NCBI RefSeq assembly: GCF_055900595.2 | Contig: NZ_CM148325.1 | Direction: 5' to 3' (one strand) | DNA: 64,000 nt | Shown: positions 42,566 to 55,251 of the stretch, in pieces | How the letters are laid out: every line of letters begins with the position of its first letter | Position numbering within the stretch: the stretch's first letter is position 1 | Program-made: the position numbers and the translations under genes | The notes under the pieces: generated by a model | What the model saw: only the letters and a program-made list of their open reading frames with translations | What the model was told of the DNA's origin: nothing | Databases searched by the model: none

Positions 42566-42689
42566 TAAAAGCGTGTTATACTCTTTCCCTGCAATGGGTT
42601 CCGTAGCAGGGAAAGAGACCCCGTTGTCTCTTCCCGGTATTTCATCTCTATGTCACATTTTGTGCGTAATTTATTCACAGCGTTGCATT

Positions 42690-50168: not shown

Positions 50169-50882
50169 ATGGAAAAAGTCATGTTGTCCTTTGACAAAGT
50201 CAGCGCCCACTACGGCAAAATCCAGGCGCTGCATGAGGTGAGCCTGCATATCAATCAGGGCGAGATTGTCACCCTCATTGGCGCGAACGGCGCGGGGAAA
50301 ACCACCTTGCTCGGCACATTATGCGGCGACCCGCGCGCCACCAGCGGGCGAATTGTGTTTGATGATAAAGACATTACCGACTGGCAGACAGCGAAAATCA
50401 TGCGCGAAGCGGTGGCGATTGTTCCGGAAGGGCGTCGTGTTTTCTCGCGGATGACGGTGGAAGAGAACCTGGCGATGGGCGGCTTTTTTGCCGAACGCGA
50501 CCAGTTCCAGGAACGCATAAAGTGGGTCTATGAACTGTTTCCACGTCTGCATGAGCGCCGTGTTCAGCGGGCAGGCACCATGTCCGGCGGTGAACAGCAG
50601 ATGCTGGCGATTGGTCGCGCTTTGATGAGTAACCCACGTTTGCTATTGCTTGATGAACCCTCGCTCGGACTGGCACCGATTATCATCCAGCAAATTTTCG
50701 ACACCATCGAGCAACTGCGCGAGCAGGGGATGACTATCTTCCTCGTCGAGCAGAACGCCAACCAGGCGCTAAAGCTGGCGGATCGCGGCTACGTGCTGGA
50801 AAATGGTCATGTCGTGCTTTCCGATACTGGCGACGCGCTGCTGGCAAACGAAGCGGTGAGAAGTGCGTATTTAGGCGGGTAA
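50169..50882 (+). CDS. livF: branched-chain amino acid ABC ATPase LivF
   Basis: ATG at 50169 gives 237 aa (MEKVMLSFDKV...); Walker A GANGAGKTT. Confidence 0.9.
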   Translation: MEKVMLSFDKVSAHYGKIQALHEVSLHINQGEIVTLIGANGAGKTTLLGTLCGDPRATSGRIVFDDKDITDWQTAKIMREAVAIVPEGRRVFSRMTVEENLAMGGFFAERDQFQERIKWVYELFPRLHERRVQRAGTMSGGEQQMLAIGRALMSNPRLLLLDEPSLGLAPIIIQQIFDTIEQLREQGMTIFLVEQNANQALKLADRGYVLENGHVVLSDTGDALLANEAVRSAYLGG

Positions 50883-50893
50883 ATTATCGAATA

Positions 50894-50921
50894 CCCGGCA
50901 GCCAGCTTCTGCCGGGTTCTT
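50894..50921 (+). terminator. candidate intrinsic terminator of the liv operon
   Basis: Stem CCCGGCAG / CTGCCGGG with a 7-nt loop, followed by TTCTTC. Confidence 0.5.
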
Positions 50922-51000
50922 CGTCCGTATACAGACTTGTTTCAACTGACCGGGAGGATTAAAACCAGACCACTTATTTGCCACGGAAAGGTTCCCTCCC

Positions 51001-51747
51001 ATGCATTATGCCGTTGTCGTCATGCTTGAACTGCTTTGCTGTATTCACGCTTATCGCTCCGGACAAGAGCGATACTGGATTTTTATTATCTTCTGTTTTC
51101 CGGTGATTGGCTGCGTGGCGTATTTCGTCATGGTTATGCTGCCTGAAACGGGCGCTGACCGTCACGGGCGTACTTTGCTGATGCGCCTGCAGGACAAAAT
51201 CAGCCCGGAACGCCACCTGCACAAATTAACCGAAGAGCTGGCGATTGCCGAGACCAATCAAAACCATTATGCGTTAGCTAACGAACTGGCGCGCCTTGGG
51301 CGTTATCACGAAGCCGTTCCCCATTATCAGCAGGCGTTAAGCGGAATTTTCGCCCATGAAGCGGTAATGATGTTAAGCCTGGCGCAGGCGCAATTTGCTA
51401 TTCAGGAGTTCGCCGCCTGTCAGCAGATGCTGGAAGATGTGATGCGTTATAACCCCGATTTTCAGTCGGCAGACGGGCATTTGTTATTTGCCAGAGCGTT
51501 AGCCGCACAAGAAAAATACGCTGATGCGGAAAGCGAGTTTGAGGTGCTTGTTTCTTATTACCCCGGCCCGCAGGCACGTATTTACTATGCGGAAATGTTG
51601 GCGAAAATGAGTCGGTTACGTGAAGCCAACGAGCAGTATGTTGCTGTAGTTGATACGGCTAAACGCTCAAGACCTCATTATAGAAAACACCACCGGGAAT
51701 GGATTAAGACCGCCAATGAACGGCTGAAGCAGAGTGTGGTGCAATGA
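51001..51747 (+). CDS. hypothetical membrane-anchored protein: N-terminal two-helix domain plus C-terminal helical (TPR-like) domain
   Basis: 248-aa ORF with a GGAAAGG Shine-Dalgarno, E. coli-like codon usage, its own upstream and downstream hairpins. N-terminus (YWIFIIFCFPVIGCVAYFV) resembles PLD-N-terminal-type small membrane domains. Confidence 0.7.
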   Translation: MHYAVVVMLELLCCIHAYRSGQERYWIFIIFCFPVIGCVAYFVMVMLPETGADRHGRTLLMRLQDKISPERHLHKLTEELAIAETNQNHYALANELARLGRYHEAVPHYQQALSGIFAHEAVMMLSLAQAQFAIQEFAACQQMLEDVMRYNPDFQSADGHLLFARALAAQEKYADAESEFEVLVSYYPGPQARIYYAEMLAKMSRLREANEQYVAVVDTAKRSRPHYRKHHREWIKTANERLKQSVVQ

Positions 51748-51876
51748 AAATCTTCTTTGCCGTTAGACCAGTGTCGCGGCAATCTTTTGTTAAAATTGAA
51801 AAATGTAGCTCTCATCGGGCAGCAAAACTGGACGCAGAATTTGCTGCCATTTTTGCTCTTCATGGTAAGGAGTTCT

Positions 51877-51907
51877 GGCGATTAGCTGACCGTTAATCGC
51901 CTCTTTT
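51877..51907 (+). terminator. candidate intrinsic terminator downstream of the 248-aa gene
   Basis: Stem GGCGATTA / TAATCGCC followed by TCTTTTC. Confidence 0.4.
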
Positions 51908-51970
51908 CAGTGCATTCTCGGGATATCCGTGCCCCATCTCCCAATTTCCCTCACCCACGCCGTCACCGCC

Positions 51971-51988
51971 TTGTCATCTTTCTGACAC
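51971..51988 (+). promoter_or_regulatory. Pho-box-like site in the ugpB promoter region
   Basis: TTGTCATCTTTCTGACAC matches the Pho-box consensus CTGTCATAAATCTGTCAC at 13 of 18 positions; further direct-repeat-like sequence follows. Confidence 0.45.
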
Positions 51989-52106
51989 CTTACTATCTTA
52001 CAAATGTAACAAAAAAGTTATTTTTCTGTAATTCGAGCATGTCATGTTACCCCGCGAGCATAAAACGCGTGAATTCGCGCATTCGGTACAACAAGAGAGA
52101 TAAACG

Positions 52107-53423
52107 ATGAAACCGTTACATTATACAGCTTCAGCACTGGCGCTCGGACTGGCGTTAATGGGGAATGCACAGGCAGTGACGACCATTCCGTTCTGGCATT
52201 CTATGGAAGGGGAACTGGGTAAAGAGGTGGATTCTCTTGCCCAACGTTTTAACGCCGAAAACCCGGATTACAAAATTGTACCGACCTATAAAGGCAACTA
52301 CGAACAGAATTTAAGCGCGGGGATTGCCGCATTTCGTACCGGCAACGCGCCGGCTATTTTGCAGGTTTATGAAGTTGGCACCGCCACCATGATGGCGTCG
52401 AAAGCCATTAAACCGGTATATGACGTGTTTAAAGAGGCGGGGATTCAATTCGATGAGTCGCAGTTTGTGCCGACGGTTTCAGGCTACTACTCCGACAGCA
52501 AAACCGGACATTTACTCTCCCAGCCGTTCAACAGCTCGACTCCTGTTCTCTATTACAACAAAGATGCTTTCAAGAAAGCGGGATTAGACCCGGAACAGCC
52601 GCCGAAAACCTGGCAGGATCTGGCAGACTATGCCGCGAAACTGAAAGCCTCTGGTATGAAGTGCGGCTACGCCAGCGGCTGGCAGGGCTGGATCCAACTG
52701 GAAAACTTTAGCGCCTGGAACGGTCTGCCGTTTGCCAGCAAAAACAACGGCTTTGACGGCACGGACGCGGTGCTTGAGTTCAACAAGCCGGAGCAGGTGA
52801 AACACATCGCCATGCTCGAAGAGATGAACAAGAAGGGCGATTTCAGTTACGTAGGGCGTAAGGATGAATCTACCGAGAAGTTCTATAACGGTGATTGCGC
52901 GATGACGACCGCCTCTTCGGGTTCTCTTGCCAACATTCGCGAGTACGCCAAATTCAACTACGGCGTAGGTATGATGCCTTACGACGCCGATGCGAAAGAT
53001 GCGCCACAAAACGCCATTATCGGCGGAGCCAGCCTGTGGGTGATGCAGGGCAAAGATAAAGAAACTTACACCGGCGTGGCGAAGTTTCTCGACTTCCTCG
53101 CGAAGCCAGAAAACGCTGCCGAGTGGCATCAGAAAACCGGTTATCTGCCAATTACCAAAGCGGCGTATGACCTGACCCGTGAGCAGGGCTTTTATGAGAA
53201 AAACCCAGGGGCGGATACTGCGACGCGTCAGATGCTGAACAAGCCGCCGTTGCCGTTCACCAAAGGGCTGCGTCTGGGCAACATGCCGCAGATCCGCGTG
53301 ATTGTGGATGAAGAGCTGGAAAGCGTGTGGACCGGTAAGAAGACGCCACAGCAGGCGCTGGATACCGCTGTTGAGCGTGGGAACCAGTTACTGCGCCGCT
53401 TTGAGAAATCTACGAAGTCTTAA
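52107..53423 (+). CDS. ugpB: periplasmic sn-glycerol-3-phosphate-binding protein UgpB
   Basis: 438 aa with signal peptide. Confidence 0.9.
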
Positions 53424-53430
53424 CCAGTGA

Positions 53431-53500
53431 AATGTCGGATGCGTTTCGCTTATCTGACCTGGCATCGCGTGTAGGCCGGATAAGCGAAGCGCATCCGGCA
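53431..53500. repeat. REP element(s) between ugpB and ugpA
   Basis: GTAGGCCGGATAAGCGAAGCGCATCCGGCA unit and a partner. Confidence 0.75.
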
Positions 53501-53520
53501 CAGTTCAGGAATTAACCGTA

Positions 53521-54408
53521 ATGTCATCATCCCGTCCGGTGTTCCGCTCGCGCTGGCTGCCTTATTTGCTGGTCGCGCCGCAGCTTATCATCACCGTTAT
53601 CTTTTTTATCTGGCCTGCGGGCGAAGCGTTGTGGTACTCGCTACAAAGCGTCGATCCATTTGGCTTTTCCAGCCAGTTTGTCGGCCTGGATAACTTCGTC
53701 ACGCTGTTTCATGACAGCTACTATCTCGACTCCTTCTGGACGACGATAAAATTCAGCACCTTTGTCACCGTCAGCGGTTTGCTGGTGTCGCTGTTCTTCG
53801 CGGCGCTGGTGGAGTACATCGTGCGCGGCAGCCGTTTCTATCAAACCTTAATGCTGCTGCCGTATGCCGTGGCTCCCGCCGTTGCCGCCGTATTGTGGAT
53901 CTTCCTGTTTAACCCTGGTCGCGGGCTGATCACTCATTTTCTCGCTGAGTTCGGCTACGACTGGAACCATGCGCAAAACAGCGGTCAGGCAATGTTCCTG
54001 GTGGTGTTTGCCTCAGTATGGAAGCAAATCAGCTACAACTTTCTGTTCTTCTATGCCGCGCTGCAATCCATTCCCCGTTCGTTGATTGAAGCCGCAGCCA
54101 TCGACGGTGCAGGCCCGATTCGCCGCTTCTTTAAGATTGCGCTGCCGCTGATTGCGCCGGTGAGCTTCTTCCTGCTGGTGGTGAACCTGGTGTACGCCTT
54201 CTTCGACACCTTCCCGGTGATCGATGCCGCCACGTCCGGCGGACCAGTACAGGCCACCACGACGCTGATTTATAAGATCTACCGCGAAGGCTTTACCGGA
54301 CTGGATCTGGCTTCGTCTGCCGCGCAGTCGGTGGTGTTGATGTTCCTCGTCATCGTGCTGACGGTGGTGCAGTTCCGCTATGTTGAAAGCAAGGTGCGTT
54401 ACCAATGA
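53521..54408 (+). CDS. ugpA: sn-glycerol-3-phosphate ABC permease UgpA
   Basis: 295 aa; operon position. Confidence 0.9.
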
Positions 54409-55250
54409 TTGAGAACCGTCCGTGGCTGACAATATTCAGCCATACCATGCTGATCCTCGGGATCGCGGTGATCCTCTTCCCGTTGTACGTGGCGTTTGTC
54501 GCGGCGACGCTGGATAAACAGGCCGTCTACGCCGCGCCGATGACGCTCATCCCCGGCACGCATCTGTTGGAAAACATCCACAACATCTGGGTGAACGGGG
54601 TAGGCACAAATAGCGCGCCGTTCTGGCGGATGTTGCTTAACAGCTTCGTGATGGCGTTCAGCATTACGCTCGGCAAAATTACCGTCTCGATGCTCTCGGC
54701 ATTTGCCATTGTCTGGTTTCGTTTTCCGCTGCGTAACCTCTTCTTCTGGATGATTTTTATCACCCTGATGCTGCCAGTTGAAGTGCGTATCTTCCCGACA
54801 GTAGAAGTCATCGCCAATCTGAATATGCTCGACAGCTACGCTGGTTTAACGCTGCCGCTGATGGCCTCGGCAACCGCTACCTTCCTGTTCCGCCAGTTCT
54901 TTATGACGCTACCGGATGAGCTGGTGGAAGCGGCGCGGATCGACGGTGCGTCACCAATGCGTTTCTTTTGCGACATCGTTTTCCCGCTGTCGAAAACCAA
55001 TCTGGCGGCGCTGTTTGTGATCACTTTTATTTACGGCTGGAACCAGTATTTGTGGCCGTTGTTGATTATTACCGACGTTGATCTCGGCACCACCGTGGCA
55101 GGAATCAAAGGGATGATCGCTACAGGCGAAGGCACCACGGAATGGAATTCGGTGATGGCGGCGATGTTGTTAACGCTTATCCCTCCGGTGGTGATTGTTT
55201 TAGTGATGCAGCGTGCCTTCGTGCGCGGCCTGGTCGATAGTGAGAAATAA
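54405..55250 (+). CDS. ugpE: sn-glycerol-3-phosphate ABC permease UgpE
   Basis: 281 aa; 4-nt overlap with ugpA. Confidence 0.9.
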
Positions 55251-55251
55251 G

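Follow-up and report, generated by a model that had tools for sequence, protein, structure and literature searches.

The 11-bp-phased PhoB array of the ugpBAECQ promoter, preserved downstream of a probably ancestral tetratricopeptide repeat gene

The 18-mer TTGTCATCTTTCTGACAC, found 119-136 bp upstream of the ugpB start codon (ATG at 52107), most probably (about 0.93) corresponds to the distal Pho box of the already characterised phosphate-starvation promoter of the ugpBAECQ operon. The feature as a whole is known biology, namely the PhoB array of the E. coli ugpBAECQ promoter. It is located in a stretch of 64,000 nucleotides of E. coli chromosome, hereafter the window, in which the gene order is livG, livF (ending at 50882), an open reading frame of 248 aa, ugpB and ugpAECQ (Table 1). 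Judging from the nucleotide sequence, the regulation of ugp has very probably been preserved in the source strain.

Table 1. Position and properties of the features of the livF-ugpB region in the window.
Feature	Position	Strand	Remarks
livF terminator-like hairpin (CCCGGCAGC...CTGCCGGG then TTCTTCGT)	50893-50925	+	-20.0 kcal/mol, z = -3.7
248-aa gene, N-terminal PLDc_N-type membrane segment and TPR repeats	51001-51747	+	Pfam TPR_19, TPR_2, PLDc_N
Terminator-like hairpin 1, after the TPR gene (GGCAGCAAA...TTTGCTGCC then ATTTTTG)	51818-51855	+	-17.4 kcal/mol, z = -3.0
Terminator-like hairpin 2 (GGCGATTAGC...GTTAATCGCC then TCTTTTCAGT)	51877-51910	+	terminator scan; -14.8 kcal/mol, z = -3.8
ugp regulatory block (candidate CRP element, Pho-box array, core promoter, 5′ UTR)	51924-52106	+	183 bp
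Conserved CGTGC-cccatc-TCCCA, candidate weak CRP site	51928-51943	+	3 mismatches to TGTGA-N6-TCACA
11-bp-phased array of seven PhoB half-sites (one upstream half-site and three Pho boxes)	51960-52032	+	
Pho box 1, TTGTCATCTTTCTGACAC (TTGTCAT-cttt-CTGACAC)	51971-51988	+	distal, top-scoring candidate PhoB dimer site
Sigma-70-like match TTGTCA-17 bp-TATCTT	51971-51999	+	9/12 consensus; interleaved with Pho boxes 1 and 2
Pho box 2 (CTATCTT-acaa-ATGTAAC)	51993-52010	+	equals the ChIP-chip motif CTATCTTACAAATGTAAC
Pho box 3 (AAGTTAT-tttt-CTGTAAT)	52015-52032	+	promoter-proximal, in the presumed -35 place; kept in 10/10 aligned taxa
Candidate -10 hexamer CATGTT, PhoB-dependent downstream promoter	52043-52048	+	10 bp after box 3; invariant in 10/10 taxa
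ugpB, periplasmic sn-glycerol-3-phosphate binding protein, first gene of ugpBAECQ	52107-53423	+	Pfam SBP_bac_8, SBP_bac_1; RefSeq WP_000803190.1

The 18-mer presents the TGTCA-type 7-bp direct repeats with a 4-bp AT-rich spacer that define a Pho box, and it belongs to a series of half-sites that start with an exact period of 11 bp: CCGTCAC at 51960, TTGTCAT at 51971, CTGACAC at 51982, CTATCTT at 51993, ATGTAAC at 52004, AAGTTAT at 52015 and CTGTAAT at 52026. A preliminary description of this DNA, made from its letters, had placed the 18-mer about 120 bp upstream of ugpB and noticed further direct-repeat-like sequence after it; both observations were confirmed, since 119 bp separate its 3′ end from the ATG and the sequence that follows is composed of the phased half-sites. 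The search of the whole window for the classical consensus CTGTCATAWAWCTGTCAY with up to three mismatches returned no match, because the 18-mer carries four mismatches to it, and a weight matrix derived from ChIP-seq sites was therefore used instead. This matrix was built with 57 published PhoB sites (Table 1 of PMC10294691), those of ugpB and rpoH being excluded as they lie inside the window.

In this matrix, the 18-mer (register 51972-51989) reached about 15.4-15.7 bits, with a median of 15.6 for the training sites, and ranked second among ~128,000 positions on both strands of the window. In 64 kb, 0.28 sites as strong as this are expected, and one box alone is weakly significant and only suggestive. 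The other 18-mers in register were all positive, with 12.0 bits at 51961, 7.7 at 51983, 9.8 at 51994, 10.8 at 52005 and 8.4 at 52016, and the sum of the six was 64.1, compared with a mean of -9.1 (sd 7.3) and a highest value of 26.2 in 200 dinucleotide-preserving shuffles. The phased array is, in this way, real and beyond chance. The opposite reading, by which the repeats would resemble Pho boxes only by chance, in intergenic DNA rich in AT, could draw on the expected frequency of a single 15-bit match and on the empty search with the classical consensus. Its probability is negligible: the score of the phased array is far beyond all 200 shuffles, the sequences are identical to published motifs bound by PhoB in vivo, and the array is conserved across genera. 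It was ruled out by the shuffles together with the identity to the ChIP-seq and ChIP-chip motifs. The best match to the PhoB matrix in the window was another sequence, TTTCATCTCTATGTCACA, at 42640-42657, upstream of rpoH, where published ChIP-seq data also place PhoB, although no expression effect was detected (PMC10294691).

The assignment of the array to PhoB comes from previous in vivo studies in K-12. In the work of Fitzgerald et al. (2023), the ugpB ChIP-seq peak, whose score of 35 was the second highest of the genome, after that of pstS, contains the MEME motif TGTCATCTTTCTGACACC (PMC10294691), and this motif, given for ugpB in Table 1 of that paper, is identical to the register 51972-51989 of the window. 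In the same study, the ugpB RNA value of 54,461 found in the wild type fell to 2,830 when phoB was deleted, a 19-fold difference. Similarly, the ChIP-chip analysis of Yang et al. (2012) positioned the ugpB motif CTATCTTACAAATGTAAC at -105.5 from the start codon (PMC3465305), in agreement with the centre of box 2 at 52001.5, which is 105.5 bp before 52107. The identity to both published motifs bears out the early suggestion that the ugp promoter has its PhoB boxes in these repeats. Moreover, in O157:H7 EDL933, whose locus has the livF-TPR-ugpB arrangement and the promoter as in the window, ugpB was 7.9-fold up in low Pi and 5.7-fold higher in the wild type than in the phoB mutant (PMC3978041). 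This strain carries the TPR gene and still induces ugpB in a Pi- and PhoB-dependent manner. The coordinates of ugp sites are absent from a Salmonella paper (PMC10715179) and from the CRP genomic SELEX paper (PMC3105977), and PMC8600398 is silent on ugp.

The AT-rich downstream repeats (ATGTAAC, AAGTTAT and CTGTAAT) could also, or even mainly, be ArcA sites that repress ugp anaerobically from an array common with PhoB. In fact, Park et al. (2013) included ugpBAE among the operons directly repressed by ArcA, and ArcA and PhoB boxes share an identical 11-bp spacing and a very similar base composition (PMC3798270). However, ChIP-seq, ChIP-chip and RNA data tie exactly these boxes to PhoB, and ArcA binding would supplement the PhoB explanation and not displace it; a role for ArcA here is considered possible, though on the doubtful side. 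The recognition of the array by PhoB is the reading followed below.

Within the PhoB array, the geometry of a box occupying the -35 place would be given by box 3, which ends at 52032, with CATGTT starting at 52043; the 18-mer is ~44 bp farther upstream. The spacing between the Pho box and the -10 hexamer is 10 bp at pstS, phoA, phoB and phoE. As the -10 element was placed by its spacing from box 3, the downstream transcription start would be near 52055. The sigma-70-like match TTGTCA/TATCTT may represent the upstream cAMP-CRP-dependent ugp promoter, for which it is a sequence-based candidate. Combining S1 mapping with footprints of PhoB, Kasahara et al. (1991, J Bacteriol 173:549) reportedly distinguished a PhoB-dependent downstream and a cAMP-CRP-dependent upstream ugp promoter. 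A downstream promoter with multiple Pho boxes, interspaced with a cAMP-CRP-dependent upstream promoter, is described in reviews and later papers that summarise this work (PMC4415409, PMC4447250, PMC3798270), two of which mention an alternative overlapping ugp promoter thought to be inhibited by PhoB~P (PMC4447250, PMC4415409).

A mechanism can be proposed in which, under Pi limitation, phosphorylated PhoB dimers would bind head-to-tail on the three 22-bp-spaced Pho boxes (51971-52032) and on the half-site at 51960. The promoter-proximal box would stand in for the -35 element and recruit the sigma-70 RNA polymerase to a weak -10 element, probably CATGTT, from which the polymerase would drive the transcription of ugpBAECQ. 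The array would also overlap the second promoter, dependent on cAMP-CRP and active in carbon starvation, which PhoB would occlude. The presumed ugpB 5′ UTR contains a small GC-rich palindrome, ACGCGTGAATTCGCGC (52062-52082), near-invariant in the ten taxa aligned and scored by the scan as a minus-strand terminator-like site. No RNA family of Rfam was found between 50800 and 52200 with permissive thresholds.

The overlap with a carbon-starvation promoter raises the question of where CRP would bind. A scan for CRP sites returned two weak candidates, the element at 51928-51943 (3 mismatches) and Pho box 1 (2 mismatches). The near-palindrome of the latter, TGTCAtctttcTGACA, might thus be the CRP site of the carbon-starvation promoter, instead of or besides a PhoB site, as it departs from the CRP core TGTGA-N6-TCACA at only two positions and a CRP-dependent promoter overlapping the Pho promoter has been described (PMC4447250, PMC4415409). 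Against this proposal, ugpB was placed in the group 'not identified by SELEX-chip' in the CRP genomic SELEX (PMC3105977). Both mismatches of TGTCAtctttcTGACA, moreover, fall on the symmetric G7/C16 positions, and the conserved element at 51928-51943, which retains the GTG and C-C, is a better candidate. In the recognition of DNA by CRP, the symmetric G7/C16 pairs make the strongest contacts. CRP binding at TGTCAtctttcTGACA is, taken together, improbable, and the 18-mer is still best read as a PhoB site.

The element at 51928-51943 has its K-12 equivalent at positions 1003-1018 of the K-12 locus (L001), and its GTG and TCCCA are kept across Escherichia, Citrobacter and Pseudocitrobacter. As it lies ~70 bp upstream of the candidate upstream promoter and start (TTGTCA/TATCTT), it is plausible, on the basis of its sequence and position, that it represents a weak CRP site of the second promoter. 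Directly 3′ of this element, position 51944 is occupied by A in the window and by T in the other nine aligned sequences, and the exact 61-mer around it was found in at most 8 of the 5,426 complete E. coli genomes. The whole element of 36 bp at 51924-51959 (TATCCGTGCCCCATCTCCCA(T/A)TTTCC...) may be functional, either as a CRP site or as the site of an undescribed regulator, a proposal rated as unlikely. If it were, the T-to-A change at 51944 would retune the carbon-starvation control of ugp, leaving the Pho control untouched; that this change affects the carbon-starvation branch and not Pho control is speculation. Another CRP-site-like sequence, TTTGAgacaggTGACA, was observed in the K-12-specific spacer just after livF (L001 818-833).

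The conservation of the promoter region was assessed by means of an alignment of ten sequences: the window, K-12, O157, E. albertii, Escherichia sp. E1V33, E. whittamii, Citrobacter sp. NCU1, Pseudocitrobacter, C. freundii and a metagenomic relative (metaG77, 77% identity). From 51924 (TATCCGTGCCCC...) to the ATG, the window equals K-12 save for 51944. Homology starts at TATCCGTG (51924) in nine of the ten sequences and farther downstream, near CGTCACC, in metaG77. The mean majority fraction across the ten taxa was 0.44 just upstream of this limit, 0.81 at 51924-51959, 0.90 in the array and 0.95 in the core promoter and 5′ UTR. All the taxa aligned retain the proximal boxes. The distal box, with 14-15 bits within Escherichia, drops to ~1 bit in the same columns of Citrobacter and Pseudocitrobacter and is therefore outside the evolutionarily constrained core of the array. 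The strongest box of metaG77 (15.4 bits) is found at the position of box 2. As read from these alignments, site strength appears to turn over inside a conserved multi-box PhoB array.

These observations indicate that the Pho control of ugp resides in a self-contained module of 183 bp, which is kept constant amid the repeated rearrangement of the DNA upstream. Such rearrangements comprise gene loss and REP elements, together with a toxin-antitoxin module inserted in C. freundii and the disappearance of the whole ugp operon from one cryptic Escherichia lineage. In C. freundii (L010 4350-5824), the TPR gene is separated from the ugp promoter by two small hypothetical ORFs and by a toxin-antitoxin pair of the Phd/YefM-Fic type, and the conserved promoter block restarts straight after these. 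In this cryptic lineage, Escherichia sp. MOD1-EC7003 (L005 3744-5568; window 51749-56904), homology to the window is interrupted from the TPR stop codon to the 3′ end of ugpQ, and ~1.2 kb of DNA replaces ugpBAEC and most of ugpQ, including the Pho promoter. The replacement DNA carries an ORF of 231 aa and an IS200/IS605-like tnpA fragment, and this genome also lacks the DNA corresponding to window positions 57528-59880.

The gene placed immediately upstream of this module encodes a product named 'tetratricopeptide repeat protein' in RefSeq; the search of NCBIfam with the 248-aa protein returned generic TPR matches alone, all under the curated cut-offs. Over 1.6 kb, the window does not differ from strain Z0117EC0005 (100% identity). 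The preliminary description considered that this gene, together with a terminator, had been inserted upstream of an intact promoter. Two terminator-like hairpins are indeed located between the gene and the promoter, and they probably act as terminators, as suggested by their folding, computed for 51818-51848 and 51877-51901; the arms of hairpin 1 are conserved in Citrobacter and Pseudocitrobacter. The claim of an intact Pho promoter also stood, given the 183 bp that equal K-12 bar one base. The insertion itself did not, as the gene is found in the same livF-ugpB slot in other species, has a host-like GC content and is not bounded by repeats, and it appears to be ancestral.

The gene looks inserted relative to K-12 because it is present in just 659 of 5,426 complete E. 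coli genomes (12%) and absent from K-12. A recent insertion just 5′ of the Pho promoter, leaving the promoter undamaged, would also be in line with the patchy distribution of the family in Enterobacteriaceae, its next relatives being distant homologues of Pseudomonas with ~44% identity in an unrelated context. Several lines of evidence, however, make such an insertion very unlikely. Firstly, the gene is found between livF and ugpB in seven lineages other than E. coli (E. albertii, E. whittamii, Escherichia sp. E1V33, Citrobacter sp. NCU1, C. freundii, a Pseudocitrobacter MAG and the metagenomic relative), with 69-96% amino-acid identity (69% in Citrobacter sp. NCU1 and in the Pseudocitrobacter MAG, 75% in C. 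freundii and 77% in the metagenomic contig), so that the absence from the orthologous site of outgroups that characterises a genomic islet is not found here. Secondly, Citrobacter and Pseudocitrobacter also possess the terminator hairpin that follows the gene. Thirdly, the GC content of the gene is 0.51, host-like, with flanks of 0.47-0.59; no target-site duplication, direct repeats or terminal inverted repeats were found at the breakpoints 50883 and 51924, and no mobility gene at the TPR gene, so that the hallmarks of an insertion are lacking. Finally, the alleles of the window and O157 are ~4% apart, indicating a long residence, and E. albertii holds the TPR gene and the K-12-type REP spacer together, positions 120-395 of the K-12 spacer matching at 89% identity.

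The most parsimonious reading of these comparisons is that the TPR gene was ancestral at this site and was lost by ~88% of E. coli, including K-12, in which the REP-bearing spacer remains. The evolutionary direction is in this way corrected, and K-12 would be a deletion derivative at this locus and not the reference state. The origin of the K-12 arrangement by REP-to-REP recombination around the TPR gene was considered and found no support, as only the right-hand part of the K-12 spacer (positions 120-395, with one REP) was located in E. albertii, 3′ of the gene, and the left REP was not found upstream of the gene. The synteny of the PLDc_N/TPR protein with ugp could reflect a functional link to phospholipid turnover.

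Other particularities were observed in the DNA around this gene. In the K-12 livF-ugpB spacer (L001 844-944), two palindromic units resemble REP elements, GCCTGATGCGCTGCGCTTATCAGGCCTAC and GTAGGCCTGATAAGGCGTTTACGCCGCATCCGGCA, and the latter is also present in E. albertii, 3′ of the TPR gene. In E. albertii (L009 2465-2890) and E. whittamii (L008), ~410 bp of additional DNA that the window lacks, including a small hydrophobic ORF, are intercalated between livF and the TPR gene. The TPR gene of E. albertii is apparently frameshifted, its best tblastn segment covering 185 of 248 aa.

In comparison with known systems, the window resembles the K-12 ugp region in the 183 bp before the ATG, which bear the same three Pho boxes. 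They differ upstream, where K-12 presents a 215-bp REP-bearing spacer right after livF in place of the TPR gene and two terminators, so that the livF-ugpB distance is 1,224 bp in the window and 398 bp in K-12; the T-to-A change at 51944 is a further difference. O157:H7 EDL933 and Sakai share with the window the gene order, the terminators and the Pho boxes, differing from it by the ~4% nucleotide divergence in the TPR gene and, in the regulatory block, at 51944 and at three bases around 51954-51956. Similarly to the canonical Pho promoters of pstS, phoA, phoB and phoE, the ugp promoter has TGTCA-type half-sites with 11-bp spacing, PhoB-dependent activation and, in the placement proposed above, a proximal box that would stand at the -35 place, 10 bp before the candidate -10 element. 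Unlike these single- or double-box promoters, it has three boxes and a half-site, the proximal boxes being degenerate (7-11 bits) and the most distal one the strongest, and its array would overlap a second promoter, so that PhoB would be both an activator and a repressor on the same DNA (PMC4447250).
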